This document shows, in pieces, positions 4,235 to 31,966 of a DNA stretch of 32,000 nucleotides. Every line of letters begins with the position of its first letter. The stretch's first letter is position 1. This stretch comes from Tannockella kyphosi (GTDB lineage: Bacteria > Bacillota_I > Bacilli_A > Erysipelotrichales > Coprobacillaceae): assembly GCF_021054785.1 (NCBI RefSeq), contig NZ_CP088239.1, positions 420,001 through 452,000 of the forward strand, read 5' to 3'. The notes below the pieces were generated by a model. It saw only the letters and a list, made by a program, of their open reading frames with translations. It ran no database searches and was not told the DNA's origin. A program made the translations under genes and the position numbers.

Positions 4235-4248
4235 GGGGAGGAAATAAT

Positions 4249-4824
4249 ATGGAAAATATATTAGCGGTGACAATTGGTGCTGCCCTCGTAAATAATGTAG
4301 TACTTAGTCAGTTTTTAGGGTTGTGTCCTTTTTTAGGGGTTTCTAAAAAAGTAGAAACGGCACTAGGAATGGGTGGAGCAGTTATTTTTGTATTAACATT
4401 GGCTTCTTTTGTAACTAGTGTGATTTATCAGTTTGTATTATCTCCACTAGGTTTTGAGTTTTTACAAACGATTGTATTTATTTTAGTGATTGCATGTTTA
4501 GTACAGTTTGTAGAAATGTTTTTAAAGAAATCAATGCCTAGTTTGCATTTATCATTGGGTGTTTATTTACCTTTAATTACTACAAACTGTGCAGTATTAG
4601 GTGTTGCTATTACGAATGTACAAAATGGTTATTCTATTATGCTTTCTGTTGTAAATGGATTCTTTACAGCAATAGGTTTTACGATTGCAATAGTGATTAT
4701 GGCAGGTATTCGTGAACGAATTGAATATAATACCTTCCTACCTTCTTGGAAAGGAACTCCGATTGTGCTAATTACCTCAGGGTTAATGGCAATAGCCTTT
4801 TATGGCTTTTCGGGATTAATTTAG
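4249..4824 (+). CDS. rnfA: Rnf complex subunit A (membrane)
   Basis: NqrE/RnfA-type membrane protein. Conserved cysteines LGLCPFLGV and TTNCAVLG. GGGGGAGG RBS. Confidence 0.93.
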   Translation: MENILAVTIGAALVNNVVLSQFLGLCPFLGVSKKVETALGMGGAVIFVLTLASFVTSVIYQFVLSPLGFEFLQTIVFILVIACLVQFVEMFLKKSMPSLHLSLGVYLPLITTNCAVLGVAITNVQNGYSIMLSVVNGFFTAIGFTIAIVIMAGIRERIEYNTFLPSWKGTPIVLITSGLMAIAFYGFSGLI

Positions 4825-5631
4825 GTGATGACAATGGATATAATGACAATAATAATGACTGCTATCATTGTAGCAGGAATAGGATTATTTATTGCTATCT
4901 TTTTAGAAGTTGCTGGAAAGAAGTTATATGTTGAGGTAGACGAAAGGGTGGAAGCAATTACCCAAGAATTGCCAGGTAATAATTGTGGTGGTTGTGGATA
5001 TCCAGGATGTGCTAATTTAGCGGGTGCAATTGTGGATGGTAATGCTAAAATTGATGGTTGTCCAGTTGGTGGAAGTAGCGTAGCGGCAATGATTGGTGCA
5101 ATTATGGGCCAAGATGCGACACAAAAAGAACCATTGGTTGCATTTGTTCATTGTGGTGGTACATGTGATAAGGCAAAACAAGACTATGTATATACGGGTC
5201 AAGCTAATTGTCAGATGGTAAAAACAATCGCAAATGGTGGACCTAAAACATGTAATTATGGATGCTTAGGTTTTGGAACATGTAAAGATGCTTGTTCTTT
5301 TGGTGCTATTGAAATTGTTAATGGCATAGCAGTAATTAATAAAGATTTATGTAAAGCATGTGGGCAGTGTGTTGGTGTTTGTCCACAAGGATTAATTTCA
5401 TTAGTAAAACAAAAAGAATCAACAAAGGTGGTTTGTAATTCAAAAGGAAAAGGAAAAGAAGTAATGGTTAGTTGTACAGTTGGTTGTATAGGCTGTGGAA
5501 TGTGTGCTAGGGTTTGCGAGCAAGGGGCCATTACGATGGTAGATAACTTACCAGTTATTGATGAAGATAAATGTACTCATTGTGGATTATGTATTGAAAA
5601 GTGTCCAAAAAAATGTTTAAAAGAAATATAG
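4825..5631 (+). CDS. rnfB: Rnf complex subunit B (polyferredoxin, ferredoxin-facing)
   Basis: N-terminal TM helix, then a CGGCGYPGC cluster motif. Several CxxCxxCxxxCP ferredoxin motifs follow (CKACGQCVGVCP, CIGCGMCARVCE, CTHCGLCIEKCP). GTG 4825 or ATG 4828 sits directly after the rnfA stop. Confidence 0.9.
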   Translation: MMTMDIMTIIMTAIIVAGIGLFIAIFLEVAGKKLYVEVDERVEAITQELPGNNCGGCGYPGCANLAGAIVDGNAKIDGCPVGGSSVAAMIGAIMGQDATQKEPLVAFVHCGGTCDKAKQDYVYTGQANCQMVKTIANGGPKTCNYGCLGFGTCKDACSFGAIEIVNGIAVINKDLCKACGQCVGVCPQGLISLVKQKESTKVVCNSKGKGKEVMVSCTVGCIGCGMCARVCEQGAITMVDNLPVIDEDKCTHCGLCIEKCPKKCLKEI

Positions 5632-5652
5632 CTAGTTAGTCACTAGCTATAT
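5626..5652. terminator. Bidirectional terminator hairpin shared by rnfB and apbE
   Basis: Perfect 11-bp inverted repeat ATATAGCTAGT / ACTAGCTATAT with a 5-nt loop. The stop codons of both convergent genes (TAG 5629-5631 on +, TAG as CTA 5643-5645 on -) lie inside the stem. Confidence 0.7.
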
Positions 5653-6617
5653 TTTAATAAATTTTCATTTGTTTGAGTAATTTGATAATCTTTATCAATA
5701 AAGATAGCCTCTACATTATCAAGACTTTCTATTAATGTTATTGCTTGGTTTAAACCAAGTGATAAACAAACGGTACTTAATACATCTGCTTGTAAAGAAT
5801 TATCACAGATAATAGTAACACTCAGTAAATCATTGTCGATAGGATAACCGGTATAAGGATCTAAAATATGATGATATATAGTGTCATTGCTTTCAAAATA
5901 TCTTTCATAAATACCAGAAGTAACAACAGATAAATCATTTATTTCTAAATAACCAATCATTTCATTTTCTTCAAAAGGAACTTGTATCGCAATATTAAAA
6001 TTATTTTTATCCGTATTTTGACCAATAGTAAGAATATTCCCACCTAAATTAATAATAGCACTCGTAACACCATTATCTTGTAGATAAATCTTTATTTGAT
6101 CACTAATATAGCCTTTTGCAAGAGCTCCTAATTCAATACTTGCTTGGCTATTTAATAAAGTGACATCATTTCCTTCTATTTGAATACAAGTGTAATCCAC
6201 TAGTGTGATAGCTTCCTCTATTTCTTCTTGACTAGGGACACTAGGATCTTCTCCTGTAAAGTCCCATAAATCACTTAATGGTTTCACTGTAATATCAAAC
6301 ATTCCATTAGTTAATTGACTATATTCAATAGCTGTTTGTAATAAATAAATAGTTTCATCACTAAGACTAACTGTATTACCATTAGCATTATTTAAGATAC
6401 TAACTTCACTAGTCTCAATACTTTGAGACCAAAGACTTTCATAATATGCACAGATATCAATAGCACCATCTAATAAGGATTCATCATCACTGTCATATAT
6501 TTGAATTGTGATAATTGTATCTAATAAAAAAGCACTCTTTGATATAGGGTCACTTTGAGAACAACCAGTTAGATGGATGGTTATCAAACAAAGTAAGATA
6601 ATATTTATTTTTCTCAT
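5643..6617 (-). CDS. apbE: FAD:protein FMN transferase (ApbE/Ftp family) lipoprotein
   Basis: Lipobox LTGCSQ after a signal peptide. ApbE-like blocks (FDITVKPL, LGALAKGY, GGN, HHILDPYTGYP). Adjacent to rnf, whose D and G subunits carry SGAT flavinylation motifs. Confidence 0.9.
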   Translation of the reverse strand: MRKINIILLCLITIHLTGCSQSDPISKSAFLLDTIITIQIYDSDDESLLDGAIDICAYYESLWSQSIETSEVSILNNANGNTVSLSDETIYLLQTAIEYSQLTNGMFDITVKPLSDLWDFTGEDPSVPSQEEIEEAITLVDYTCIQIEGNDVTLLNSQASIELGALAKGYISDQIKIYLQDNGVTSAIINLGGNILTIGQNTDKNNFNIAIQVPFEENEMIGYLEINDLSVVTSGIYERYFESNDTIYHHILDPYTGYPIDNDLLSVTIICDNSLQADVLSTVCLSLGLNQAITLIESLDNVEAIFIDKDYQITQTNENLLKYS

Positions 6618-6706
6618 GAAATCACTTCCTTTTTAATATTATATCATGTTTCAAAGAAGCTTGGGCAATATTATAAAAATGTGTTAAACTTAAAAAGAGG
6701 TATAAA

Positions 6707-7057
6707 ATGAAAAGAAATGATTGGATATTAATAATAGGAATAGTTTTACTAGCAAGTATCGTATCTTTATACTTAGTTGTTTTCACGTCGCCAGGAACTA
6801 GTGTTATTATTAGTGTACAAGGAGAATTCTTTGGGGAATATGATATTACAGAAAATCAAGAAATAGTAATTGATGACTGTAATGTGATTTGTATTGAGGA
6901 TGGAAAAGTATCCATGGTGAGTGCTGACTGTCCTGATCATTTATGCATTCAACAAGGTGAAATAGAATTGGTGGGAGAAAGTATTATTTGTTTACCAAAC
7001 CAGGTAATCGTTAGTATCGAAGGAAATGATACACAAATTGATGCAGTTGCAAAGTAG
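6707..7057 (+). CDS. NusG domain II-containing small membrane-anchored protein (formerly DUF1312)
   Basis: 116 aa. N-terminal TM anchor and a beta-rich body carrying CPDHLC ... ICLPN, as I recall for the NusG_II family that usually pairs with Gx transporters. Family call is from memory. Confidence 0.65.
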   Translation: MKRNDWILIIGIVLLASIVSLYLVVFTSPGTSVIISVQGEFFGEYDITENQEIVIDDCNVICIEDGKVSMVSADCPDHLCIQQGEIELVGESIICLPNQVIVSIEGNDTQIDAVAK

Positions 7058-7065
7058 GTGAGAAA

Positions 7066-7551
7066 ATGACAAAAAAAATAACTAGTGTTGCAATGTTTGC
7101 TTGTGTCGCATTACTTTGTAGCTATATAGAAATGATGATACCAAACCCTTTTGCAATGCAAGGGATAAAATTAGGATTGGCCAATAGCGTGGTGTTATTT
7201 AGTATTTATTACTTCTCTTTTCGAGAAGCATATATGATTAGTGTAGTAAGAGTGGTTTTAGTTAGTCTTCTTTTCGGTAGTTTCTTTGGTTTGGCGTTTA
7301 GTTTAGCGGGATGTACGATTAGTATGATAGCGATGTATTTGGCTTATCGTAGTAAGTTATTTAGTATCGTAGGAAATAGTATAATAGGTGCTGTTTTTCA
7401 TAATATTGGGCAATTGTTAGTAGCAATGATTTTATTAGAGAGTATTTCTGTCATTTATTATTTTGTTGGTTTGTTAATAAGTGGTGTTATTAGTGGATGC
7501 TTGATAGGATTGCTCTGCCAAAAGGTAGTAAAACAAATAAAAAGACAATGA
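7066..7551 (+). CDS. Gx transporter family protein (often mis-annotated as heptaprenyl diphosphate synthase component I), ECF-S-like membrane protein
   Basis: 161 aa, 5-6 TM helices. Begins 9 nt after the NusG_II gene. The GIKLGLAN / FHNIGQL blocks are typical of this family. Call is from memory. Confidence 0.65.
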   Translation: MTKKITSVAMFACVALLCSYIEMMIPNPFAMQGIKLGLANSVVLFSIYYFSFREAYMISVVRVVLVSLLFGSFFGLAFSLAGCTISMIAMYLAYRSKLFSIVGNSIIGAVFHNIGQLLVAMILLESISVIYYFVGLLISGVISGCLIGLLCQKVVKQIKRQ

Positions 7552-7571
7552 TTATTCAATCGTTGTCTTTT
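7540..7571. terminator. Bidirectional hairpin between the Gx-transporter gene and the MATE gene
   Basis: AAAAGACAA (7540-7548) pairs with TTGTCTTTT (7563-7571), 14-nt loop. It spans the abutting stop codons of the convergent genes. Confidence 0.5.
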
Positions 7572-8910
7572 TCAGTTTGAATATAAATAAGTTAATGACG
7601 ATAAATAATAAAGATCCCTTACATATCGTAGAAATGGATACTGCCCACCAAACTCCATTTAAACCTAGTGCAGTACTACACAATATCATTGCCATTGGGA
7701 TACGTAATCCAGTACAAACTGTACTAATAATAGCAGGATATGCTGTTTTACCAAAAGCATTCAACGTCCCGGTTGATAATATCTCATAACACATAAATAA
7801 TTGAGAAACACTTAAGATTACTAAATAATCAACACCCATTTGAATTACTTCTGGTTCTGTTAAGAAAATAGAGATAATTGGTTTTGATCCAAAGAATAAT
7901 AATAAACTAGCAAAGATTCCAATAGCACCTAAAATAAGTGCAGATTGATAAAATCCTTTCACAGCCCTTTTTATATTTTTAGCACCATAGTTTTGAGCTA
8001 CAAAACTATTCACTGCAATAGCAAAGCCATCCGCGGTCATCCAAGAAATAGATTCTATTTGAGATCCAATTCTTTGAACTGCAATTGCTTCATCTCCAAA
8101 ACTAGCAACAATTTTAGATAAATAAATAGAAATCAAAGGAAATACAGTATTTTGTAATGTTGTTGGAAATCCTAATTTGATAATTTTTAAACATTTTTCA
8201 CCACTTGGTAAAGAAAACAAATGAACATGATTAAATAAATGTGTATCTTTATATGCATGATAAGCAAGAATACTAAAAACAATAAATTGAGCAGTTACAG
8301 TAGCAATGGCTGCTCCTAAAACACCTAATGTTGGAAAACCAAACCAACCAAATATTAAAATAGGGTCCATAATAATATTAAATACTAAACCAACAGTAGT
8401 AGCCATAAATGGGGTTTTACTATCTCCAGTAGTAGTAATTAATGCTGTTAATAATTTACTTAATAAAGAAAAACAAATAAGTCCACCTGTCACTTGAATA
8501 TAGGCAATAGAATCTAAAATGATATCTTGACTTGATAACTCAAAGAAACCAACTAATGGTTTAGCAAAAAAGAAATACAAACACCCTAATAGAAAACTAA
8601 CTAAAAAACTCAAACAAATAGCGGCATGTGCAAAATCAGCTGCTTCTTTTATCTTTTTAGCTCCTAAGTTTTGTGCAACATAAACTTGACCACCTAATTG
8701 TGCAATCGTATGAATACCTTGGCTCAACCAAATGAATAATCCTCCAGTACCAATACTTGCTATTGCTCCAGCACCTAATTTACCAATCCATACCATATCA
8801 ATCAAATTATAAGCCATTTGTAAAAAGCTCATTCCCATTAAGGGTAATGACAATTTTGTTAAAGAAATGGCAATCGGGCCATTTAATAAATCAACTCTTT
8901 TTTTAGACAT
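7552..8910 (-). CDS. MATE family efflux transporter
   Basis: 452 aa, 12 predicted TM helices. The N-terminus LLNGPI...LPLM...L.Q..YNLIDMVWIGKLG is the MatE signature, and the internal repeat VAQNYGAKN echoes VAQNLGAKK. GAGGAAG RBS. Confidence 0.9.
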   Translation of the reverse strand: MSKKRVDLLNGPIAISLTKLSLPLMGMSFLQMAYNLIDMVWIGKLGAGAIASIGTGGLFIWLSQGIHTIAQLGGQVYVAQNLGAKKIKEAADFAHAAICLSFLVSFLLGCLYFFFAKPLVGFFELSSQDIILDSIAYIQVTGGLICFSLLSKLLTALITTTGDSKTPFMATTVGLVFNIIMDPILIFGWFGFPTLGVLGAAIATVTAQFIVFSILAYHAYKDTHLFNHVHLFSLPSGEKCLKIIKLGFPTTLQNTVFPLISIYLSKIVASFGDEAIAVQRIGSQIESISWMTADGFAIAVNSFVAQNYGAKNIKRAVKGFYQSALILGAIGIFASLLLFFGSKPIISIFLTEPEVIQMGVDYLVILSVSQLFMCYEILSTGTLNAFGKTAYPAIISTVCTGLRIPMAMILCSTALGLNGVWWAVSISTICKGSLLFIVINLFIFKLKKTTIE

Positions 8911-9020
8911 CTTGTACTTCCTCTTTTCATCTCAACTATTATATAGCTAGACTGTTTAAATGTAAATACATTGTTAGAATCAAAGGTTTTATATATTAAA
9001 CAAAAAGTTTAAAAAAACTA

Positions 9021-9048
9021 TTGCTTTTTGTCTAGAAGGAAGTATAAT
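9021..9048 (+). promoter_or_regulatory. Sigma-A type promoter for the XRE-cupin regulator / pot operon
   Basis: TTGCTT (9021-9026), 16-nt spacer, TATAAT (9043-9048). Confidence 0.5.
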
Positions 9049-9105
9049 ATGTTTGTTCGATAAATAAAACAAATAGTTCTATTAATGAAACAAGGAGGAA
9101 GATGT

Positions 9106-9639
9106 ATGGAAATAGGTGCGAAGATAAAACGGTTAAGATTAGCGAATCATTTAACGTTAGAAGAACTTGCAAATCGTAGTGAATTGACAAAAGGTTTTTT
9201 ATCTCAATTAGAAAGAGACTTAACATCCCCTTCGATTACTACATTAGAGTATATTCTAGAAGCCCTTGGTACAAACCTCCAAGAGTTTTTTAATGAAAAG
9301 CAGGAAGAACAAATAGTTTTCAAAAAAGATGACTTTTTTGAAAATGAACAATCAGGATATACAATATCGTATATTGTTCCTAATGCTCAAAAGAATGAAA
9401 TGGAACCAATTTTATTATCGCTTGATTCTGGTGCTACATCGATGGTTTTAGAGCCAGATGACGGACAAGAGTTTGGATATGTTATCCAAGGAAAAGTAAG
9501 TTTAAACTATGGAGAAAAAGTGTTAACTTTGCGTAAAGGGGAAACTTTTTATATTAAAAGTGGTTTAAGACATTTTATAAAAAATACAGGAGATAGTGTG
9601 GCTAAGGTGATCTGGGTATCAACACCACCAATATTTTAA
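9106..9639 (+). CDS. XRE-family HTH transcriptional regulator with a C-terminal cupin domain (PuuR-like)
   Basis: Start moved to ATG 9106, after AGGAGGAAG. The [35 protein letters not shown] is XRE type. The C-terminal G.E.GYV..G......G......GE.FY......H...N pattern is a cupin. Confidence 0.85.
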
Positions 9640-9650
9640 GGAGAATAACA

Positions 9651-10694
9651 ATGGCAAAATTAATTGAATTAAGTAATCTTACAAAAGAATACGATGGTCA
9701 AGTAGTTTTAAAGGGTATTCATTTAGATATAAATGAAAAGGAATTTGTAACATTACTTGGTCCTAGTGGTTGTGGAAAAACAACGACACTTAGAATTTTA
9801 GGTGGATTTGAAGAAGCGAATAGTGGAACAGTACTTTTTAATGGTCAAGATATGGCAACACTACCACCACATAAAAGAGAATTAAATACAGTATTTCAAA
9901 AATATGCTTTATTTCCACATATGAATGTATTTGATAATATAGCATTTGGTTTAAAAATTAAAAAATTAGATAAACAAACAATTGATTTTAAAGTCAATAG
10001 AATGTTGAAATTAGTAAATCTAGAAGACTATGGGAAAAGACAAATTAATCAACTTTCAGGTGGTCAACAACAACGTGTTGCTATTGCTAGGGCATTAGTT
10101 AATGAACCAAAAGTATTATTATTAGATGAACCTTTAGGAGCATTGGACTTAAAATTAAGAAAGTCAATGCAATTAGAATTAAAAAATATTCAAAAAGAAG
10201 TAGGAATTACTTTTGTATATGTTACACATGATCAAGAAGAAGCATTAACGATGTCAGATACAATTGTAGTAATGAATGAAGGAGCAATTCAACAAATAGG
10301 GTCACCTATTGATATTTATAATGAACCTGAGAATCGTTTTGTAGCACAGTTTATAGGAGATTCAAATATAATTGAAGGTACTTTTGTAAAGGACTTTTTG
10401 GTGAATTTTGATGATGTTAATTTTGAATGTGTTGATAAAGGATTTGATGAAGGACAAGAGATAGATATTGTTATTCGTCCTGAAGATATTGATATTGTAG
10501 AAGTGGGTAAAGGGAAAATAAGAGGAGTAGTATCTTCTATTGTATTTAAGGGAGTACATTATGAAATAATGGTTACTTCTAATATTCGTGAATATAAAAT
10601 ACATACAACAGACATAAGTGAACTAGGGAAAACAGTAGAATTAGATTTCTGGCCAGAGGATATCCATGTAATGGATAAATTAGGAATGTATTAA
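9651..10694 (+). CDS. potA: Spermidine/putrescine ABC transporter, ATP-binding protein
   Basis: Walker [10 protein letters not shown], signature LSGGQQQRV, Walker B LLLDEP, and the C-terminal TOBE-like domain typical of PotA. Confidence 0.93.
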
Positions 10695-14490: not shown

Positions 14491-14565
14491 GGTTCCATGG
14501 CCAAGTTGGTAAGGCTACAGACTGCAACTCTGTCATCATCGGTTCGAGTCCGGTTGGAACCTCCA
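14491..14565 (+). tRNA. tRNA-Cys: tRNA-Cys (anticodon GCA)
   Basis: Acceptor GGTTCCA/TGGAACC, anticodon loop CTGCAAC, T-arm GGTTCGAGTCC, discriminator T, encoded CCA. Confidence 0.92.
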
Positions 14566-14570
14566 ATGTT

Positions 14571-14659
14571 GCCCAGGTGGCGAAACTGGTAGACGCACAG
14601 GACTTAAAATCCTGCGGACCTTAAAATCCGTGCCGGTTCGATTCCGGCCCTGGGCACCA
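14571..14659 (+). tRNA. tRNA-Leu: tRNA-Leu (anticodon TAA)
   Basis: Acceptor GCCCAGG/CCTGGGC, anticodon loop CTTAAAA, long variable arm, T-arm GGTTCGATTCC, encoded CCA. Confidence 0.92.
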
Positions 14660-14695
14660 TTTAAAATTATGAAATCAAAAAAGTTTAAAAAGTTC

Positions 14696-14724
14696 TTGCA
14701 ATGGTTATACGGCTGTGATAAGAT
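14696..14724 (+). promoter_or_regulatory. Internal promoter in the Leu-Arg spacer of the tRNA operon
   Basis: TTGCAA (14696-14701), 17-nt spacer, extended -10 TGATAAGAT (14716-14724), inside the unusually long 89-nt spacer. Confidence 0.55.
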
Positions 14725-14748
14725 GATTAAGCGTTCCGGTTTCAACTT

Positions 14749-14825
14749 GCGCTAGTAGCTCAACTGGATAGAGTGCTTGACTACGGATCAAGAGGTTGTG
14801 GGTTCGATTCCTGCCTAGCGCGCCA
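14749..14825 (+). tRNA. tRNA-Arg: tRNA-Arg (anticodon ACG)
   Basis: Acceptor GCGCTAG/CTAGCGC, anticodon loop CTACGGA, T-arm GGTTCGATTCC, encoded CCA. Confidence 0.92.
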
Positions 14826-14834
14826 ATTATATTT

Positions 14835-14911
14835 CGGGAAGTAGCACAGCTTGGTAGTGCACCTGGTTTGGGACCAGGGGGTCGCAGGTTCAAATCCTGT
14901 CTTCCCGACCA
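14835..14911 (+). tRNA. tRNA-Pro: tRNA-Pro (anticodon TGG)
   Basis: Acceptor CGGGAAG/CTTCCCG, anticodon loop TTTGGGA, T-arm GGTTCAAATCC, encoded CCA. Confidence 0.92.
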
Positions 14912-14933
14912 TTTAAAATTTATACCAAGTAAT

Positions 14934-15009
14934 GGGGCCTTAGCTCAGCTGGGAGAGCACCTGCCTTGCACGCAGGGGGTCAGCGGTTCGATCCCGCTAG
15001 GCTCCACCA
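14934..15009 (+). tRNA. tRNA-Ala: tRNA-Ala (anticodon TGC)
   Basis: GGGGCCTTAGCTCAGCTGGGAGAGC with the G3:U70 identity pair, anticodon loop CTTGCAC, encoded CCA. Confidence 0.93.
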
Positions 15010-15031
15010 TTATTAATGTTTACGCCATGAT

Positions 15032-15108
15032 GGCGGGGTAGCTCAGTTGGCTAGAGCAATCGGTTCATACCCGGTCGGTCGGGGGTTCGAATCCCTTCCC
15101 CGCTACCA
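15032..15108 (+). tRNA. tRNA-Met: tRNA-Met, elongator (anticodon CAT)
   Basis: GGCGGGGTAGCTCAGTTGGCTAGAGC, anticodon loop TTCATAC. The body resembles the Bacillus elongator tRNA-Met (from memory). Encoded CCA. Confidence 0.85.
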
Positions 15109-15146
15109 ATTTTTTAAAAGGTGCCCCAGGTACGAAACAACAACAA

Positions 15147-15223
15147 GGACCCTTAGCTCAGTTGGTTAGAGCTACCGGCTCATAACCGGTCGGTCGTTGG
15201 TTCGAGTCCAACAGGGTCCACCA
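15147..15223 (+). tRNA. tRNA-Ile: tRNA-Ile2 (anticodon CAT, lysidine-dependent); assignment over Met is by body similarity
   Basis: The GGACCCTTAGCTCAGTTGGTTAGAGC body and CTCATAA loop resemble Bacillus tRNA-Ile2(CAU) as I recall it. Encoded CCA. The tRNA call is solid; the isotype is less so. Confidence 0.75.
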
Positions 15224-15235
15224 ATTTAATATCGC

Positions 15236-15328
15236 GGAGGTTTACCCAAGCCCGGCTGAAGGGATCGGTCTTGAAAACCGACAGGGGATGAAAGTCCCGC
15301 GGGGGTTCGAATCCCTCAACCTCCGCCA
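15236..15328 (+). tRNA. tRNA-Ser: tRNA-Ser (anticodon TGA)
   Basis: Acceptor GGAGGTT/AACCTCC, anticodon loop CTTGAAA, long variable arm, T-arm GGTTCGAATCC, discriminator G, encoded CCA. Confidence 0.92.
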
Positions 15329-15360
15329 TTTTTAAAAAAGTAAATAGAGTATTATATTAT

Positions 15361-15437
<77 letters not shown>

Positions 15438-15441
15438 TTAT

Positions 15442-15518
15442 GGTCTGGTAGTTCAGTTGGTTAGAATGCCGCCCTGTCACGGCGGAGGTCGCGGGTTCGA
15501 GTCCCGTCCAGACCGCCA
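15442..15518 (+). tRNA. tRNA-Asp: tRNA-Asp (anticodon GTC)
   Basis: Acceptor GGTCTGG/CCAGACC, anticodon loop CTGTCAC, T-arm GGTTCGAGTCC, encoded CCA. Confidence 0.92.
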
Positions 15519-15522
15519 TAAT

Positions 15523-15598
15523 GGCTCCATAGCTCAGTCGGTAGAGCAGAGGATTGAAAATCCTCGTGTCGCTGGTTCGATTCCGGCTGGAGCCACCA
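15523..15598 (+). tRNA. tRNA-Phe: tRNA-Phe (anticodon GAA)
   Basis: GGCTCCATAGCTCAGTCGGTAGAGC, anticodon loop TTGAAAA, T-arm GGTTCGATTCC, encoded CCA. Confidence 0.92.
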
Positions 15599-21430: not shown

Positions 21431-21435
21431 GTTAA

Positions 21436-21520
21436 TGAGCCGGGGGCGCGAAAGCTGAGATAGGTGTTGCCTAGTCCCTTACGATCTGATCTGGATAATG
21501 CCAGCGTAGAGAGAGCAAAT
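21436..21520 (+). promoter_or_regulatory. TPP (THI-box) riboswitch aptamer
   Basis: Contains the conserved CTGAGA ... CCCTTACGATCTGATCTGGATAATGCCAGCGTAGAGAG core, which compares with the consensus CUGAGA...ACCCUUUGAACCUGAUCUGGAUAAUGCCAGCGUAGGGAA. A thiamine transporter gene lies downstream. Confidence 0.88.
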
Positions 21521-21531
21521 GAGTTTTTTAT

Positions 21532-21599: not shown

Positions 21600-22118
21600 A
21601 TGAAATTTGAATTAACAACAAAAAACATGGTTTATGTAGCAATTTTTGCAGGGCTACAATTGGTGTTAGAATTTTTAACACAATTAACACCACAAATGCC
21701 ACAAGGAGGAAATATCTCATTTTCATTAGTAGTTATTATTTTATGTAGTTATTTAATGTCTTGGAGTTATGGGGTATTGGTGTCGTTAGTATGTTTAGGA
21801 TTACATTTTGTATTAGGATTTGCAACTTATTATGGAATGGCATCATTGATGTTTGACTATGTGATTCCAATGATTTTAGTTGGATTAACTGGAATAATTC
21901 CACTAGTACATATTAAAAATAAAATATTTCCGATAAGTATTATAATTATCATGGTGTTAAAAACAATAAGTCATTTATTATCAGGGTGGTATGCATTCCA
22001 AACACCACTTATTGGGAATTTAACATACAATTTACCATATAATATTGCAACATGTATTGCTTGTTATATTTTATTTATTTTATTATATCCAAGATTAAAA
22101 AATCAGTTTAAAAAATAG
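21600..22118 (+). CDS. thiT: Thiamine ECF transporter S component ThiT
   Basis: 172 aa, 6 TM helices. ThiT-like PQGGNISF motif. Directly downstream of a TPP riboswitch. Confidence 0.85.
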   Translation: MKFELTTKNMVYVAIFAGLQLVLEFLTQLTPQMPQGGNISFSLVVIILCSYLMSWSYGVLVSLVCLGLHFVLGFATYYGMASLMFDYVIPMILVGLTGIIPLVHIKNKIFPISIIIIMVLKTISHLLSGWYAFQTPLIGNLTYNLPYNIATCIACYILFILLYPRLKNQFKK

Positions 22119-25940: not shown

Positions 25941-25970
25941 TTGATTAATAGAAAATAAAAAGTATATAAT
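25941..25970 (+). promoter_or_regulatory. Promoter of asnS
   Basis: TTGATT (25941-25946), 18-nt spacer, TATAAT (25965-25970). Confidence 0.5.
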
Positions 25971-25993: not shown

Positions 25994-27385
25994 ATGTTTG
26001 AGTTTAAAACAGTTAGAGAATTGTATGAAATGTTCTTATATGGTGAATTAATGGAGTTAGAAGGCTTAGAATATATTGAATTAGAAGGTTGGGTTCGTAC
26101 AAATAGAAATAGTGGTAAATTAGGTTTTATTGCATTGAATGATGGTACATATTTTAAAAACCTACAAATCATTTATTTAGAAGAAGGAATTAAGAACTTT
26201 GAAGAGGCAGGTAAGTTATCAACAGGTTCAGCAGTACGTGTTGTTGGTAAATTTAAACTAACACCAGATGGAAAACAACCATTTGAATTAGAAGCAACAG
26301 AATTAGAAGTATTAGGGAAATGTGATGATGACTATCCTTTACAAAAGAAACGTCATACAATGGAATATTTAAGAGATATCCCTCATTTACGTCCTCGTAC
26401 GAATACATTTATGGCAACATTTAGAGTACGTTCTCTATTAGCTATGGCGATTCATGAATTCTTCCAAAGCCAAGGTTTTGTTTATGTTCATGCTCCAATT
26501 ATTACAGGAAATGATGCAGAAGGAGCTGGAGAATGTTTTAAAGTTACCACAAGAGATGATGGAAACTATGAAGAAGATTTCTTTGGAAAACAAGCTAGTT
26601 TAACAGTATCAGGACAATTACATGTAGAATCTTTTGCAATGGCATTTCGAGATGTTTATACATTTGGTCCAACTTTCCGTGCAGAAAATTCAAATACAAG
26701 TACGCATGCAAGTGAATTCTGGATGATTGAACCAGAAATTGCTTTTGCGGATTTAGATGATGATATGGATTTAATTGAAGATTGTTTGAAATACTGTATC
26801 CAATATGTTTTGGATAATGCTCCTGCAGAAATGGAATTCTTAAACAATTTTGTTTGTCCTACAAAAGATTTATTAGAAAGACTTCAAACTGTTGTTGATT
26901 CTAAATTTACTCGTTTAGATTATTCAAAAGCAATTGATATATTGAAAGAATCAGGTAAGAAGTTTAAATTCCCAGTCGAATGGGGAGTGGATTTAGCAAC
27001 TGAACATGAACGTTATATTTGTGAAGAAGTAATTAATGGACCAGTTTTCTTAACAAACTATCCTAAAGATATTAAAGCTTTCTATATGCGTATGAATGAT
27101 GATAATAAAACAGTGGCTGCTTGTGACTTACTGGTACCAGGAATTGGCGAGTTAGTAGGTGGTAGTCAAAGAGAAGAACGTTATGATCTTTTAGAAAAAC
27201 GCATGGAAGAAATGAATGTAGAAAAAGAAACGTTAGAATGGTATTTAGATTTACGCCGTTATGGTGGTGTAAAACATGCTGGTTTCGGTATTGGATTCGA
27301 ACGTTTAGTGATGTATATGACAGGAACTGCGAATATTCGCGATGTGTTACCATATCCTAGAACACCTCGTAATCTTAAATTTTAA
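25994..27385 (+). CDS. asnS: Asparagine--tRNA ligase
   Basis: Class IIb aaRS. N-terminal OB fold, motif 2 [21 protein letters not shown], motif 3 [13 protein letters not shown] length of 463 aa is typical of AsnRS. AGGAGG RBS. Confidence 0.95.
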
Positions 27386-27389
27386 TACG

Positions 27390-27420
27390 ATATTCCTTTG
27401 GAAACAAAGGAATATTTTAT
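27390..27420 (+). terminator. Hairpin/terminator after asnS
   Basis: 11-bp stem ATATTCCTTTG / CAAAGGAATAT with a GAAA loop, then TTTTATT. It ends only 23 nt before the next ATG. Confidence 0.65.
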
Positions 27421-27438
27421 TAAGGAAGGAGAATTATA

Positions 27439-28902
27439 ATGCATCAAATTGATATAATAAATACTTATCTTCATTTATTACACCGTAGTGATCGTGTTTT
27501 CTTGTATCGTATGTTTGATAGCTACGAACATTTAACTACCATGCAAGCTTGGGTACAAGAAAATGATATTGACTTACCTTTTATTCATCGAATAGATAGT
27601 GATATGTTTGCAATTAGCCAAAAAGCTCGTAGTTTTTTAAAACTACAAGCAATGATGCATTATCCTTGTGTTCAAGAAGTAGAACGTTGGGTAGAATCAC
27701 AAAATGAATTGTATCATGTTGTCTTTTTACCTAGTGTGATGGAAGAACATTTATTAAATAAATGTTTCACATCGAAACAGTGGATTGATCAATATCAAAG
27801 AGATAATGTTCACAATTTATATATTAATGATTTAGAAGAATGGAAGATGTTATCTTTTAATGCACCGAGTAGTTCTTTTTTTGAAGCATTATATAAAATT
27901 GATAATTGGCCAGGGCTTTTAGTTACTAAAAAGGAAAAAAAAATATTTATACCTGTTAGCAATCAAGAGGATATTGATGATGTATTTTCTTTAATAGAAC
28001 AAGAAAAGATATTTGATAAAGAAAAGCCAGTGGAAGATGCAATGTATATTATGCATTTAAGTGATTTACATTTAGGTCCTAAAAGTAAGAAAAAAGGGTT
28101 GAGTGTATTATGCGATAGTATTGATTCTTTTTCTAAAAGAGTGAATTCTTCTGTTCCTTTACAATTTATTATTACAGGTGATTTAATGAATTCACCTAAT
28201 AAAAAAGCAATTGCTAGTGTTACTTATTTTTTACGTTGGTTAAAGAGAAAACACCATGGTTGTGTTACTTATGTTTTGGGTAATCATGATGTATTGTTTC
28301 ATGGTTTAAATATCATGAGCTCTCCTAAAACACGTATTATTGCTTCTTTGTTAGAAGATGAATTAGTAGTTAATGAACAACAAAAAGTAATTTATATAAA
28401 AATTAATTCAGTATTAGGCGGTAATCTTGCTAGAGGAAAAATTGGTAAAAAACAATTAATGGATATTGAAGAAGAATTAGATATGGTAGATAATTTGGAA
28501 GAATATACTTTAATAGCACTTGTACATCATCATGTATTGCCTATTGAAAAAGATGATTTTTTAAAGCGTAAATGGCATGAAAAGATATTTATTCATCGGA
28601 TTATTGAAAGTAGTAAAGTATTAAAAGATAGTGAGTATTTTATTGATTGGTTAAAGAGTAAGGGTATTTGTTATGTTTTTCATGGGCATAAGCATTTGCC
28701 ATATTTTAATCATAGTGATGATTTGTATGTTGTTGCAGGAGGATCTTCTTGTGGTGGAGGCGTTAATGAAAGGAAAAGTCGCTATTTGAGTTATAATGTA
28801 GTGAAGTTTGATCCGATTAGTAAACAAATGAAATATTGTTTTATTTGTTATGATGATATAACTAAATTAGAGAGACAAAGAGTGAAGGTACACTTGTTTT
28901 AG
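27439..28902 (+). CDS. Calcineurin-like metallophosphoesterase domain protein with an unassigned ~200-aa N-terminal region
   Basis: The C-terminal ~285 aa carry the complete MPE motif set in order: SDLHLG (DxH), ITGDL (GD), LGNHD (GNHD), LVHHH (H), FHGHKH (GHxH). I recognise nothing in aa 1-200. AAGGAAGGAG RBS. Confidence 0.8.
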   Translation: MHQIDIINTYLHLLHRSDRVFLYRMFDSYEHLTTMQAWVQENDIDLPFIHRIDSDMFAISQKARSFLKLQAMMHYPCVQEVERWVESQNELYHVVFLPSVMEEHLLNKCFTSKQWIDQYQRDNVHNLYINDLEEWKMLSFNAPSSSFFEALYKIDNWPGLLVTKKEKKIFIPVSNQEDIDDVFSLIEQEKIFDKEKPVEDAMYIMHLSDLHLGPKSKKKGLSVLCDSIDSFSKRVNSSVPLQFIITGDLMNSPNKKAIASVTYFLRWLKRKHHGCVTYVLGNHDVLFHGLNIMSSPKTRIIASLLEDELVVNEQQKVIYIKINSVLGGNLARGKIGKKQLMDIEEELDMVDNLEEYTLIALVHHHVLPIEKDDFLKRKWHEKIFIHRIIESSKVLKDSEYFIDWLKSKGICYVFHGHKHLPYFNHSDDLYVVAGGSSCGGGVNERKSRYLSYNVVKFDPISKQMKYCFICYDDITKLERQRVKVHLF

Positions 28903-28911
28903 GAGAGGGAT

Positions 28912-30300
28912 ATGAAATTAGTTGATAAAATGAAAGATGAAAGTCTAGGGATGGCTTTATTATATGGTTTTACAAAAGGTGCTAACAAAGTAGAGATGGA
29001 TGTCTATGATGTGGTTTTACCACTTGTGTATAATGATATGTTTCGTAAGGCTTTGATTAAAGAAGAATCTGTTCAAGAGGCTATTGCTTTTTGTGTTTCT
29101 AAGAAGTTGTTGTTCTTGAAAAACTTATTAAATGATATCGAAGAGACAAAAGAAATGACTGCAAGAGCATTAGCGATGGCTATGATTGGACAACTTTTAG
29201 AATATCCGATGGAAGATGGCGTTGTATATGGGAAATGTGTTGAGGGAGCAAAAGTTTTGGATTTTAATGAAATGGAAACTTTAGGAAGTTACTTTTCTGG
29301 AAAATCAAAAGAGGAAGTGTTGGCATGTTTTGAATCGCCGATACCAAAGATTGTTTTTTTAGATAGTGAGACATTAGGGAATGATGTGGATTTATCAGGA
29401 TTGTCAAAACTAGGAAATGTTGTTTTACAAACAAAAGATACAAGTATGGAACAAAGAAAAGAAGCAATGAAGGACGCTAATATCATTATTTCTAATAAAA
29501 TTGTTTTGGAACCAATGTTGCTAGCGAATGCTAAAAAGGTAGAACTAATTTGTGTTACTGCGACAGGTTATAATCATGTGGAAATGAGATATTGTAAAAA
29601 ACATGATATTACAGTTTGTAATGTAAAAGGTTATTCTACTAATAGTGTTGTTCAGCATACGTTTGCGCTACTTTTAAATTTATATAATAAGATTCCTTAT
29701 TACCATCAGTATATTGATAGTGGGAATTATAGTACTAGTTCTCTATTTAGTCATTTTGATTATGTTTTCCATGAATTGGATGGTAAAAAATGGGGTATTG
29801 TTGGAATGGGAGATATTGGCCAAAAGGTAGCAATGATTGCTACTGCTTTTGGGGCGGATGTTCAATATTATTCAACTAGCGGTAAAAACCAAGGACAATC
29901 TTATCCATGTGTTGACTTAGACATTTTGCTACAAACTAGTGACATTATTAGTATCCATGCACCTTTCAATGAAGCAACTGAGAATTTGTTTAATAAAGAA
30001 ACTATTTTTAAAATGAAAAAAGGTTCTTATTTAATTAATGTAGGTCGTGGAAAAATTGTGGATGAACAAGCAGTAGTGGATGCGTTGAATGAAAATATTC
30101 TTGCGGGAGTAGGTCTAGACGTATTTGAAAAGGAACCATTTTATGAGGAAAGTCCATTGTTAACTATAAAGGATCCAAACCGTCTTGTGATGACACCACA
30201 TATTGCATGGGCAGGAATTGAGACAAGAAATCGTGTAGTAGAAGAGGTTTGTTTGAATATTTCTAGTTATTTACTAGGAAATAAAAGAAATGCGTGTTAA
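28912..30300 (+). CDS. Fusion protein: unassigned ~145-aa helical N-terminal domain plus a complete NAD-dependent D-isomer-specific 2-hydroxyacid dehydrogenase (glycerate dehydrogenase-like)
   Basis: From K146 (KIVFLD...) the sequence is a full-length D-2-HADH. It has GIVGMGDIGQKVA (GxGxxG), VGRG (catalytic Arg), DVFEKEP (Glu) and PHIAWA (His). There is no stop or plausible internal start/RBS at the junction. GGAGAGGG RBS, 9 nt after the upstream stop. Confidence 0.8.
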   Translation: MKLVDKMKDESLGMALLYGFTKGANKVEMDVYDVVLPLVYNDMFRKALIKEESVQEAIAFCVSKKLLFLKNLLNDIEETKEMTARALAMAMIGQLLEYPMEDGVVYGKCVEGAKVLDFNEMETLGSYFSGKSKEEVLACFESPIPKIVFLDSETLGNDVDLSGLSKLGNVVLQTKDTSMEQRKEAMKDANIIISNKIVLEPMLLANAKKVELICVTATGYNHVEMRYCKKHDITVCNVKGYSTNSVVQHTFALLLNLYNKIPYYHQYIDSGNYSTSSLFSHFDYVFHELDGKKWGIVGMGDIGQKVAMIATAFGADVQYYSTSGKNQGQSYPCVDLDILLQTSDIISIHAPFNEATENLFNKETIFKMKKGSYLINVGRGKIVDEQAVVDALNENILAGVGLDVFEKEPFYEESPLLTIKDPNRLVMTPHIAWAGIETRNRVVEEVCLNISSYLLGNKRNAC

Positions 30301-30315
30301 TCATGCATTTTTTGT

Positions 30316-30344
30316 TTGTAATGTGATTTTAATTATGATATAGT
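30316..30344 (+). promoter_or_regulatory. Promoter of the DEAD-box helicase gene
   Basis: TTGTAA (30316-30321), 17-nt spacer, extended -10 TGATATAGT (30336-30344). Confidence 0.55.
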
Positions 30345-30370
30345 GTCTAGGTTACTTGAAAGGAGAAAAG

Positions 30371-31966
30371 ATGAGTATAAGCAAATTTGAAGAATTAGGT
30401 TTAAGTGTAGAAGTGTTAAAAGCAATCGAAGATATGGGGTTTGATACTCCTTCTAAAATCCAGGAACAAGCGATTCCTGTTGTATTAGAAGGGAAAGACG
30501 TTATTGGCCAGGCGCAAACTGGAACTGGTAAAACCCTAGCTTTTGGAGGGGGATTGTTGTCAAACGTATATCCAAGTAAAAATAGATTACCACAAGCGAT
30601 TATTTTATCGCCAACAAGAGAATTAGCGATGCAAATTCATGAAGAAATGCAACGTATTGGGAAATACAATGGAAGTCGTATGACTTGCGTATTTGGTGGA
30701 AGTGATATCGAAAGACAAATTAGAGATTTGAAAAAAGGTGTGGATATTGTAGTAGGTACACCTGGTCGTGTTATGGATTTAATGCGTCGTAAAGCTTTAA
30801 GATTATCAGATGTTCGTTATGTAGTTTTAGACGAAGCTGATGAAATGTTAAATATGGGGTTTGTAGAAGATATTGAAACTATTTTAGATGATGTTCCTGA
30901 AGAACGTCAAACTATTTTATTCTCTGCTACAATGCCACAAGCAATAAAGGTTATTGCTAGTCATTATATGAAAAAAGATCATGAACATATTGCTATTGCA
31001 GCAAAAACTAGAACTGCATCTACTGTAAAACAATCTTATTATGAAGTAAAACAAAAAGATCGTTTTGAAGCATTATGTCGTTTGATTGATGTAACACATG
31101 TAAGTGCGGGGATTATTTTCTGTCGTACAAAAAGAAGTGTAGATGAAGTTTGTGAAAACATGCAAAAAGCGGGATATAGTGTAGAAGCAATGCATGGAGA
31201 TTTAACACAAAATCATCGTATGAATACATTACGTAAATTTAAAAATGGAACTATTAAATTCTTAGTTGCTACTGATGTTGCAGCTAGAGGGATTGATGTT
31301 GAAAATGTAAGCCATGTTATAAATTATGAGTTACCTCAAGATATTGAGTCATACATTCACCGTATTGGTAGAACGGGTCGTGCTAATAAAGAAGGTTTAG
31401 CCTACAGTATTATCACACCAAGAGAAAAGAGTTTCTTAGGACAAATTCAAAGGGTAACAAATAGTAAAATTGAAAAACAAGAAATTCCAACATTTTCACA
31501 AATTGAACAAGCAAGAATGGATCATTTATTATCAGAAGTAGAAGATGCAATCTTTGCCGGGAAACATAAAAAGTTTAAAACAATGGTAAATGAAATTGAT
31601 CCAGCTATGGTTTTAGATTTTACAGCAGCACTATTACAAATGCATTATCAAGATAAACCAGGGTATGGATATACTCGTGAGTCACTTAGTAGTGCAGAAT
31701 CATCAAATGGTCGTAAAAAAGGTTCTAAATATGCTCGTATTTTTATTACAGCAGGAACAATGGATCGTGTAAAAGTCCCACAAATTATTAGCTTTTTCTG
31801 TGATAAAGCAGGGATTAGTAAAGATGATATTGGAGCAATTGATATTAAGAGAAAATTCTCTTTTGTTGATTTAAATCCAAAAGTAGTAGAACAAGTTATT
31901 GAAAATTGTAATCATAAGAAAATAAATAATCGTAAGATTGATATTGAAATTGCAAATAAGAAATAA
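30371..31966 (+). CDS. DEAD-box ATP-dependent RNA helicase with a C-terminal DbpA-type RNA-binding domain
   Basis: Start moved to ATG 30371, after AAAGGAG. Motifs in order: Q-motif F..LGL......GF..PS.IQ, AQTGTGKT, PTRELA, DEAD (LDEADEML), SAT, HRIGRTGR. The C-terminal ~75 aa (ARIFITAG...ISKDDIGAIDI...SFVDL) look like the DbpA/YxiN RRM-like domain. Confidence 0.9.
   Translation: MSISKFEELGLSVEVLKAIEDMGFDTPSKIQEQAIPVVLEGKDVIGQAQTGTGKTLAFGGGLLSNVYPSKNRLPQAIILSPTRELAMQIHEEMQRIGKYNGSRMTCVFGGSDIERQIRDLKKGVDIVVGTPGRVMDLMRRKALRLSDVRYVVLDEADEMLNMGFVEDIETILDDVPEERQTILFSATMPQAIKVIASHYMKKDHEHIAIAAKTRTASTVKQSYYEVKQKDRFEALCRLIDVTHVSAGIIFCRTKRSVDEVCENMQKAGYSVEAMHGDLTQNHRMNTLRKFKNGTIKFLVATDVAARGIDVENVSHVINYELPQDIESYIHRIGRTGRANKEGLAYSIITPREKSFLGQIQRVTNSKIEKQEIPTFSQIEQARMDHLLSEVEDAIFAGKHKKFKTMVNEIDPAMVLDFTAALLQMHYQDKPGYGYTRESLSSAESSNGRKKGSKYARIFITAGTMDRVKVPQIISFFCDKAGISKDDIGAIDIKRKFSFVDLNPKVVEQVIENCNHKKINNRKIDIEIANKK

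Follow-up and report, generated by a model that had tools for sequence, protein, structure and literature searches.

Results

Two domain-fusion genes next to asnS

The stretch of DNA analysed here (the window) comprises 32,000 nucleotides (nt) of the Tannockella kyphosi genome (GCF_021054785.1, NZ_CP088239.1 positions 420,001-452,000), and all coordinates below are counted within it. Directly downstream of asnS, the gene for asparaginyl-tRNA synthetase, lie two open reading frames on the same strand, ORF1 and ORF2, followed by a DEAD-box helicase gene (Table 1). An original prediction made from the letters alone had described a cassette of two genes 9 nt apart, each joining an unassigned N-terminal region to a catalytic domain with intact motifs. 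Both points were borne out: the reading frames occupy 27439-28902 and 28912-30300, and their catalytic parts match Pfam Metallophos in ORF1 and 2-Hacid_dh and PRK08410 in ORF2. Judged by profile comparisons, ORF1 and ORF2 are a two-gene module that combines anti-phage-type parts with a metabolic enzyme.

An MC3 adaptor domain fused to a dehydrogenase

We assign residues 1-143 of ORF2, from profile evidence, to MC3/LmuC, the middle component of ABC-3C (type II Lamassu) systems. The first matches were marginal (Pfam E 1.7e-4; PADLOC LmuC E 9.5e-4). Taken in isolation, the domain scored 24.8 bits against a Pfam MC3 gathering score of 23.2 bits, and nine of nine family members matched. A profile of 26 diverse ORF2-family members, searched exhaustively against 1.84 billion representative proteins, retrieved only 50, and those beyond the ORF2 family were stand-alone proteins of 153-165 residues that are unambiguous Pfam MC3 members (E 1e-19 to 1e-34). 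Aligned directly with canonical MC3 profiles, the ORF2-family domain gave an hhalign probability of 99.3% (E 9.6e-21, 137 columns). The top PDB sequence match of the profile was the LmuC chain 9hqu_D, aligned end-to-end, a match that is weak taken alone (E 0.17).

Canonical MC3 genes (Rhizobium, Agrobacterium Ti and Brucella plasmids) lie in overlapping operons in the order effector with C-terminal CTD7, MC3, DUF3732/LmuB, and their neighbours include restriction, TIR, PIN and integrase genes. Within Lamassu, LmuC bridges the effector docking domain and the LmuB dimer and also contacts double-stranded DNA, and its models resemble helix-turn-helix transcription factors (PMC12663957). The suggestion that the N-terminal regions of the two proteins serve as adaptors or sensors thus stands for ORF2, whose N-terminus belongs to an adaptor family.

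The remainder of ORF2 is covered by 2-Hacid_dh domains (residues about 146-458, leaving about 145 N-terminal residues) and by the whole of NCBIfam PRK08410 (NF006263; residues 146-456, 404.8 bits against a 389-bit cut-off). Conservation across 120 homologues is 98% or more for the GxGxxG motif (G298/G300/G303) and for R379, E408 and H430, and the enzyme is predicted to be catalytically intact and presumably dimeric. Only a few residues separate MC3 from the first dehydrogenase strand. The best 120 ORF2 homologues are all fusions, and those that carry a name are annotated only as dehydrogenases; in public databases, several hundred proteins are labelled simply D-2-hydroxyacid dehydrogenase, with no mention of their MC3 domain.

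One Faecalibacillus-like lineage departs from this form, with A8 in place of an A9 homopolymer at the junction between MC3 and the dehydrogenase (L001:8415-8425 versus L024:8865-8876; L numbers denote the related loci that we compared). The shorter tract splits the fusion into a 148-residue MC3 gene and a 298-residue dehydrogenase gene. Its presence on at least 24 contigs, which come from different samples, marks it as a real variant, and the tract is possibly phase-variable; no equivalent homopolymer is present at 29290-29380 of the window. We considered the stand-alone MC3 gene beside the phosphoesterase in L001-L006 as a candidate ancestral state and rejected it, given that the difference amounts to this one base and that fusion is the rule.

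A Calcineurin-CE-like phosphoesterase with a composite N-terminus

In ORF1, Pfam Metallophos spans residues 202-420, leaving about 200 N-terminal residues. The metal ligands (D209, H211, D248, N282, H283, H363-365, H415, H417 and H419) are invariant in 49 homologues, and a family-specific segment, NS..GNLARGK[IV]G..QL, lies between motifs of the core. DS9_1_antiphage is the top NCBIfam match for ORF1 and for every relative tested, at 55-83 bits compared with at most about 48 bits for other families. For comparison, we back-translated the published PUA motif and used it to find PUA-Cal-type proteins on viral contigs; on the DS9_1 model one of them reaches 530 bits, above the 420-bit cut-off, and another, L127, narrowly misses it with 402.9 bits. 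Along the whole core, L127 can be aligned with the ORF1 family profile (hhalign 97.3%, E 2.8e-11, 235 columns), and the alignment takes in the distinctive segment between motifs III and IV. Mre11 and SbcD are the best PDB sequence matches for motifs I-III (E about 1e-7), and the ORF1 core scores 55 bits for Calcineurin-CE versus 18 bits for SbcD. Among the best structural matches to ORF1 is also chain B of PDB 9a6c (481 residues), from an integrative model of Bacillus subtilis YydD-YydB (E 1.2e-8, 333 columns).

The AlphaFold model of ORF1 is confident, with a predicted local distance difference test score of 84 for the whole protein and 91.7 for residues 1-198 alone. As modelled, the protein is a helical bundle, then a thioredoxin-like subdomain, then the phosphoesterase core. 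The seven-helix bundle (residues 1-88) is lineage-specific and the fastest-evolving part, and no match to a known domain was found for it. For residues 89-195, two independent fold libraries returned thioredoxin-fold proteins only, and those weakly (E 0.005-0.02, template modelling score about 0.5-0.6 on the target). This subdomain is devoid of a CxxC motif and keeps a conserved D-x-W157-P158-G159 motif, together with S139, P143, F147 and A150. A Chitinophagaceae protein of 537 residues aligns to ORF1 residues 89-478 (hhalign 100%, E 1e-61) and has a different extreme N-terminus; because residues 89-478 are common to ORF1 and its Bacteroidota homologues, the thioredoxin-like subdomain and the core form the conserved unit, with the helical bundle as a variable module. 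The profile and structure searches proposed in the original prediction for both N-terminal regions therefore ended in MC3 for ORF2 and in a helical bundle with weak thioredoxin-fold matches for ORF1, rather than in well-characterised housekeeping domains. The DNA of the poorly conserved helical-bundle region also holds, on the minus strand at 27625-27650, a terminator-like hairpin with an 11-bp stem followed by a T-run.

Two candidate identities for the ORF1 N-terminal region were rejected. As an LmuA docking domain it reached an hhalign probability of only 0.2% against a CTD7 effector, a Pfam scan at E up to 1 returned no CTD family, and LmuA chains were absent among the PDB fold matches listed for ORF1. 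As a PUA domain it fared no better: residues 1-188 failed to align to PUA-Cal with hhalign, and the region contains neither the VWWGWW nor the TPxYY motif.

Distribution, synteny and selection

Full-length ORF1 homologues are abundant in Coprobacillaceae (416 clusters; the named ones belong to Thomasclavelia, Coprobacillus and Longibaculum). A scan of 185,579 species genomes produced 64 loci, which we divided by tblastn and analysis of open reading frames. MC3 and dehydrogenase share one reading frame of 454-486 residues at 43 loci, and at three more a frame of similar length has a diverged N-terminus, so that a long ORF2 directly follows the phosphoesterase at 46 of the 64. Five loci were scored as a phosphoesterase followed by a plain dehydrogenase, one of which (L050) is truncated where its contig ends; a further locus seems to be a pseudogene; and the remaining 12, where no dehydrogenase lies downstream, comprise loci at contig ends, phosphoesterases that stand alone and outliers from other phyla. 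Across the set, ORF2 starts between -95 and +17 nt relative to the phosphoesterase stop, a conserved tight coupling.

The locus is syntenic near rex and asnS in more than 10 Coprobacillaceae genera. At most loci the two genes are adjacent and asnS is the upstream neighbour; the helicase, taken in the original prediction as the other flank, lies downstream in only about 13 of the 64. That prediction had also seen the cassette as wedged between its neighbours, which implies an insertion. The comparison contradicts this: the cassette is an ancestral, vertically inherited, family-wide locus of Coprobacillaceae under purifying selection, and not a recent arrival. No integrase, transposase or significant flanking repeats were found around it, as predicted, and no other defence genes or mobile elements were seen nearby. 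In the relatives the genes carry only the labels metallophosphoesterase and D-2-hydroxyacid dehydrogenase, and not those of an annotated metabolic operon.

Selection was measured as omega within four genus-level groups with unsaturated synonymous sites. Values were lowest for asnS (0.016-0.037), followed by the phosphoesterase core (0.039-0.047), the dehydrogenase (0.045-0.107), MC3 (0.046-0.234) and the ORF1 N-terminal region (0.12-0.26). Every region is thus under purifying selection, which indicates that all parts are functional, with the ORF1 N-terminal region the least constrained. In two genera (Catenibacterium L057-L064 and Faecalibacillus-like L022-L030), the phosphoesterase gene stands out with a median synonymous divergence of 0.5-0.74, which exceeds the values for asnS (0.21-0.25) and MC3 (0.19-0.32) in the same genome pairs by a factor of 2.5-3 and suggests recombination or allelic exchange confined to the phosphoesterase gene. 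Mirror-tree analysis of domain co-evolution was set aside: partial correlations were all high (0.50-0.86) because of co-inheritance and did not discriminate between models. As a guide to an MC3 docking surface on ORF1, we compared the lineages that lack MC3; the few residues changed in both lie mostly in the core (G220, E307, I309, V311, N329, I388, K443 and D472), a list drawn from only two independent losses.

Outside the family, ORF1 homologues are rare and stand alone, in surroundings of a mobile or defence-like kind, and two of them count for a conflict origin of ORF1. The homologue in a Chitinophagaceae metagenome-assembled genome (L068, 6443-8056) sits between two pairs of tyrosine-recombinase and IS91/Y2-transposase genes (1830-10459), and that of Tangfeifania adjoins a trypsin-like peptidase and a HigB/HigA pair. 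In L068, an unannotated ORF of 141 residues lies upstream of the homologue within the same interval, and the layout resembles a composite transposon. Plasmid and phage collections held almost nothing similar: one weak phage match and one plasmid lineage.

Gene junction, transcription and surroundings

Table 1. Features of the cassette and its flanks in the window
Feature	Coordinates	Strand	Remarks
Promoter-like site TTGATT-18-TATAAT	25941..25970	+	upstream of asnS; sole plausible cassette promoter in the window
asnS, asparaginyl-tRNA synthetase	25994..27385	+	conserved upstream neighbour
asnS terminator/attenuator hairpin	27380..27425	+	core stem 27390-27400 / 27405-27415, then TTTTATT
ORF1, 487 aa (amino acids), N-terminal regulatory region + Calcineurin-CE-like metallophosphoesterase (predicted)	27439..28902	+	
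ORF1 aa 1-88, seven-helix bundle (model)	27439..27702	+	
ORF1 aa 89-195, thioredoxin-like alpha/beta subdomain (model)	27703..28023	+	
ORF1 aa 200-487, metallophosphoesterase core	28036..28899	+	
Ribosome-binding site GGAGAGGG	28902..28909	+	overlaps ORF1 stop codon
ORF2, 462 aa, MC3 adaptor domain fused to D-2-hydroxyacid dehydrogenase (predicted)	28912..30300	+	
ORF2 aa 1-143, MC3/LmuC-family middle component domain (predicted)	28912..29340	+	
ORF2 aa 146-462, NAD(P)-dependent D-2-hydroxyacid dehydrogenase, PRK08410 type	29347..30297	+	
Terminator-like hairpin over ORF2 stop	30285..30313	+	end of transcription unit
Promoter-like site preceding helicase gene	30316..30344	+	
DEAD-box helicase (DEAD, Helicase_C, DbpA domains)	30356..31966	+	own promoter-like site; outside module

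The junction of the two genes, with its gap of 9 nt, reads, in order, TAG (28900-28902), GGAGAGGG, AT and ATG (28912). The overlap of the ribosome-binding site with the ORF1 stop codon indicates translational coupling of ORF1 and ORF2. Upstream, the predicted asnS hairpin was confirmed (-19.3 kcal/mol; z = -6.0 relative to shuffled sequences), and its core stem does end 23 nt before the ORF1 ATG. A hairpin with a U-tract directly 3' of asnS is kept in nearly all relatives despite sequence turnover.

The claim that this leaves no room for a dedicated promoter applies to the window and not to the family at large. Here the asnS-ORF1 spacer measures 53 nt and holds only the hairpin, a short U-tract and a ribosome-binding site; no usable promoter was found in it, and the cassette in this organism is probably expressed by read-through of asnS from the site at 25941-25970. 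In many relatives (L010-L045), by contrast, the asnS terminator is followed, ahead of the phosphoesterase gene, by an extended -10 box, TGnTATAAT, a predicted promoter of the cassette's own that is absent from the window and from the Catenibacterium spacers (42-53 nt). Dependence on asnS read-through is therefore not a general property of the module.

The surroundings are ordinary. Housekeeping genes lie around the cassette (tsaE/B/D, rimI, rex, asnS, ackA and thiT), and base composition is, as expected from inspection by eye, much like that of the neighbours, with a GC content of about 0.30 throughout and ORF1 slightly lower (0.26-0.30 versus 0.30-0.35). Regulation by Rex was considered because rex lies just upstream; its operator had three matches, each with 2-3 mismatches, which is fewer than expected by chance, and none was near the cassette. 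A search for scars of mobile elements or flanking repeats returned short chance-level repeats only, and no operator-like repeat near the cassette. A 34-nt direct repeat of 71% identity links 28422-28455 with 30036-30069; its copies encode NLARGKIGKKQ, in the inter-motif segment of the phosphoesterase, and NVGRGKIVDEQ, in the catalytic-arginine motif of the dehydrogenase, and their resemblance is probably due to chance. An RNA leader or riboswitch at the cassette was likewise discarded, as Rfam reports only tRNAs and a thiamine pyrophosphate (TPP) riboswitch elsewhere in the window. The tRNA genes number 11 (14491-15598, plus strand; Cys, Leu, Arg, Pro, Ala, three Met, Ser, Asp and Phe), and the TPP riboswitch (21432-21530, 59.4 bits) precedes a gene for a thiamine transporter of the ThiT/YuaJ type (21600-22118).

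Discussion

We regard the anatomy of this module as solid and infer its mechanism. Our tentative proposal, to which we give somewhat less than an even chance, is that ORF1 and ORF2 form a conflict-derived complex of effector, adaptor and enzyme that has become fixed in the core genome, with ORF1 acting as a regulated pyrophosphate hydrolase of nucleotides or nicotinamide adenine dinucleotide (NAD) that is probably gated by the dehydrogenase. In such a complex, MC3 would tether the ORF1 phosphoesterase to the dehydrogenase dimer, by analogy with the way LmuC bridges effector and scaffold. ORF1 would hydrolyse pyrophosphate or phosphoester bonds of nucleotides (deoxynucleoside diphosphates, dNDP, or their ribonucleotide counterparts, NDP) and/or of NAD(H), like PUA-Cal, MisA and DS-9A, and, depending on the state of its cofactor (NAD(P)H/NAD(P)+) or substrate (2-oxoacid), the dehydrogenase would hold or free this activity. 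Whatever the ORF1 N-terminal region binds could provide a second control on the phosphoesterase. A link through NAD(H) fits, without being established by, the fact that the closest characterised relatives of ORF1 cleave NAD+ and its partner is NAD(P)-dependent.

The original prediction had already raised a conflict or stress module as one option. That idea now has two independent supports, the MC3 domain of ORF2 and the similarity of the ORF1 core to Calcineurin-CE; the accompanying guess that the phosphoesterase is a nuclease or cyclic-nucleotide hydrolase loses ground, since the nearest characterised relatives make nucleotide or NAD pyrophosphate hydrolysis the likelier activity. The fixed, family-wide locus favours exaptation or domestication into a cellular role, such as one in stress or nucleotide homeostasis, over classical mobile defence. 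At the same time, the fast-evolving N-terminal region, the 2.5-3-fold phosphoesterase synonymous divergence and the sporadic loss of components keep an immune function possible.

Several observations weigh against the proposed complex and its activity. Placement of ORF1 in the Calcineurin-CE clade is likely, judging from sequence, and falls short of proof: it reaches only 55 of the 420 bits that the equivalog cut-off of the DS9_1 model demands, all metallophosphoesterases share the core motifs, and by structure the nearest solved phosphoesterases to the core are Rv0805, GpdQ and SMPDL3A. ORF1 has no recognisable LmuA-type docking domain by Pfam, hhalign or the listed PDB fold matches, and tight gene coupling is by itself no proof of a complex. 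Nor is MC3 always there. Four intact loci in two lineages (L010/L011 and the Kandleria-like L038/L042) have a plain dehydrogenase and keep the tight coupling, and solo phosphoesterases occur at other loci (the Beduini-like L041/L044/L049, and L056); because at least two lineages without MC3 keep the phosphoesterase, MC3 is dispensable for the role of the latter. Finally, vertical conservation across a family beside housekeeping genes is atypical of defence systems.

A second explanation, which we consider possible and yet rather unlikely, is that the module is an active anti-phage or anti-plasmid system acting by abortive infection. The ORF1 N-terminus or the dehydrogenase would sense a cue of infection, the core would deplete NAD+ or (deoxy)nucleoside triphosphates, and the MC3-dehydrogenase would restrain it or clear its ligand, like HAD/MisB in Metis. 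In keeping with this, for each of the two parts other than the dehydrogenase the closest characterised relatives all belong to defence systems, and DS-9/Metis shows the same layout of a sensor-sized N-terminus, a Cal core and a coupled gene for a partner enzyme. Evolution is fastest in the sensor-like N-terminal region, the phosphoesterase diverges as under allelic exchange, components are lost sporadically, and homologues outside the family have mobile or toxin-antitoxin surroundings. Set against these are a locus that stays next to asnS in more than 10 genera without defence genes or mobile elements nearby, purifying selection on the core almost as strong as on asnS, PADLOC matches that are weak (E 1e-5 and 1e-3), and the near-absence from phage and plasmid collections.

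An ordinary metabolic or housekeeping operon is, in our judgement, unlikely. Here the pair would couple phosphoester hydrolysis with the redox chemistry of 2-hydroxy and 2-oxo acids, and MC3 would be an inherited appendage, structural at most. The dehydrogenase is indeed a bona fide PRK08410-type enzyme with intact catalytic residues, its coupling to the phosphoesterase persists where MC3 is absent, the core-genome location is stable under strong purifying selection, and by structure GpdQ, a glycerophosphodiesterase, and Rv0805, a cyclic-nucleotide phosphodiesterase, are among the neighbours of the ORF1 core. However, the omega of MC3 (0.05-0.23) and the retention of the fusion in 46 of 64 genomes show that this domain is not a decaying remnant, the phosphoesterase also occurs solo and as mobile cargo in other phyla, and its best sequence relatives are conflict effectors. 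Our literature searches gave no pathway linking such a calcineurin-like phosphoesterase with a D-2-hydroxyacid dehydrogenase, and we know of none that involves an ORF1-type N-terminus.

In eukaryotes, the D-2-hydroxyacid-dehydrogenase fold of CtBP serves as an NADH sensor, a precedent for reading ORF2 as a metabolite- or redox-sensing DNA-binding regulator in which MC3 binds DNA and the dehydrogenase senses NAD(H) or a 2-oxoacid to control ORF1 or other genes. The DNA contacts and helix-turn-helix-like models of LmuC (PMC12663957) and the short path from MC3 to the first dehydrogenase strand would suit such a role, which is nevertheless very improbable, as those contacts are to the backbone within a structural maintenance of chromosomes (SMC) complex and not sequence-specific, no operator-like repeat lies near the cassette, the full catalytic residue set suggests turnover rather than pure sensing, and some lineages have lost MC3 without further change to the operon.

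Returning to the domesticated effector-adaptor-enzyme complex, its most far-reaching form is that an LmuC adaptor has been detached from its SMC ATPase and joined to a metabolic dehydrogenase, so that redox or 2-oxoacid state as read by this active, dimeric enzyme, and not DNA ends, gates a Calcineurin-CE-type enzyme degrading NAD or nucleotides, as a core-genome function across the family. We hold this specific version to be doubtful, and it would have considerable consequences: ORF2 would be the first member of the LmuC family to act outside Lamassu, and the module would represent either immune parts domesticated for metabolic-state-dependent control of nucleotide and NAD pools or immunity wired to central metabolism. 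The bacteria concerned are common in human and animal guts, with the module fixed in Thomasclavelia, Faecalibacillus, Catenibacterium, Longibaculum and others. Should the complex form, it would be a tractable example of the domestication of defence adaptors and effectors, or of their rewiring to new inputs, and would point to a link of redox or 2-oxoacid metabolism with the control of nucleotide or NAD pools.

Comparison with known systems

The simplest comparison is with the dehydrogenases of PRK08410/NF006263, whose whole model and catalytic residues ORF2 matches and from which it differs by its N-terminal MC3 domain of 143 residues. The SbcD/Mre11-SbcC/Rad50 arrangement also comes to mind, as here, too, a calcineurin-fold phosphoesterase gene directly precedes an LmuC-type module, and LmuC has been proposed to originate from the separation of the nuclease and C-terminal domains of SbcD (PMC12663957). 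However, short Lamassu systems are reported to have no SbcD similarity (PMC12663957), and MC3 is of the short-Lamassu class; ORF1 is closer to Calcineurin-CE, and an SbcC/Rad50 partner is absent. The likeness is probably coincidental.

A closer parallel is offered by DS-9, in which two genes, for a metallophosphatase and a HAD phosphatase, make up a defence system that has been validated (PMC13092281); the same architecture has also been studied as PUA-Cal-HAD (10.64898/2026.01.15.699771) and as type I Metis, MisA-MisB (10.1101/2025.11.05.686725). The Calcineurin-CE core converts dNDP to deoxynucleoside monophosphates (dNMP) and NAD+ to nicotinamide mononucleotide (NMN) and AMP (10.64898/2026.01.15.699771), and proteins with this core deplete NAD+ in vivo (10.1101/2025.11.05.686725). 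Depletion of dNTPs or NAD+ by Calcineurin-CE effectors is a recent finding. Like these systems, the cassette is a two-gene operon in which about 200 N-terminal residues precede a core of about 285 residues and the second gene encodes a partner enzyme. Even the positions of the ligands nearly agree (D207/H209 in about 486 residues of DS-9A/PUA-Cal, D209/H211 in the 487 residues of ORF1). The differences lie in the N-terminus, a helical bundle with a thioredoxin-like fold instead of a PUA-like domain; in the partner, an MC3-dehydrogenase fusion instead of a HAD phosphatase; and in the membership of the cassette in the core genome. With no PUA domain in ORF1 and no HAD gene in the neighbourhood, where the downstream gene is the MC3-dehydrogenase fusion, the cassette is not a PUA-Cal-HAD or Metis system.

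The other parent is type II Lamassu/ABC-3C, with which the cassette shares a true MC3/LmuC homologue in ORF2 residues 1-143 and an effector-like gene followed directly by the middle component, overlapping or nearly so as in canonical operons. The order of effector, middle component and third component is kept as well, with the dehydrogenase fused at the place of LmuB, and phosphoesterase effectors are counted among the LmuA variants (10.1101/2025.06.23.660979). On the other hand, tblastn with three LmuB proteins returned nothing better than E 0.87 from the window and 73 related loci (982 kb), and the same loci contain no DUF3732 or CTD7 homologue. MC3 is here fused to a dehydrogenase, the effector domain is C-terminal in ORF1 and N-terminal in LmuA, and the cassette is fixed and vertical where Lamassu is patchy and found in defence islands. 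With no LmuB ATPase in the window or these loci and no recognisable LmuA docking domain in ORF1, the cassette is therefore not a Lamassu system either.

LmuC/MC proteins have so far been reported from Lamassu alone, and others who looked specifically for LmuC homologues elsewhere obtained none (PMC12663957). The original prediction knew of no system built from this pair of genes, and our literature searches agree: they returned no description of an LmuC/MC3-dehydrogenase fusion, of LmuB-less Lamassu parts or of the ORF1 phosphoesterase family. The combination thus appears undescribed. It is neither Lamassu nor Metis; rather, it is a Calcineurin-CE-like two-gene module with a Lamassu-type adaptor, in which the LmuC-type and Calcineurin-CE-like parts come together without the defining sensor of either parent system and an NAD-dependent dehydrogenase is present instead.

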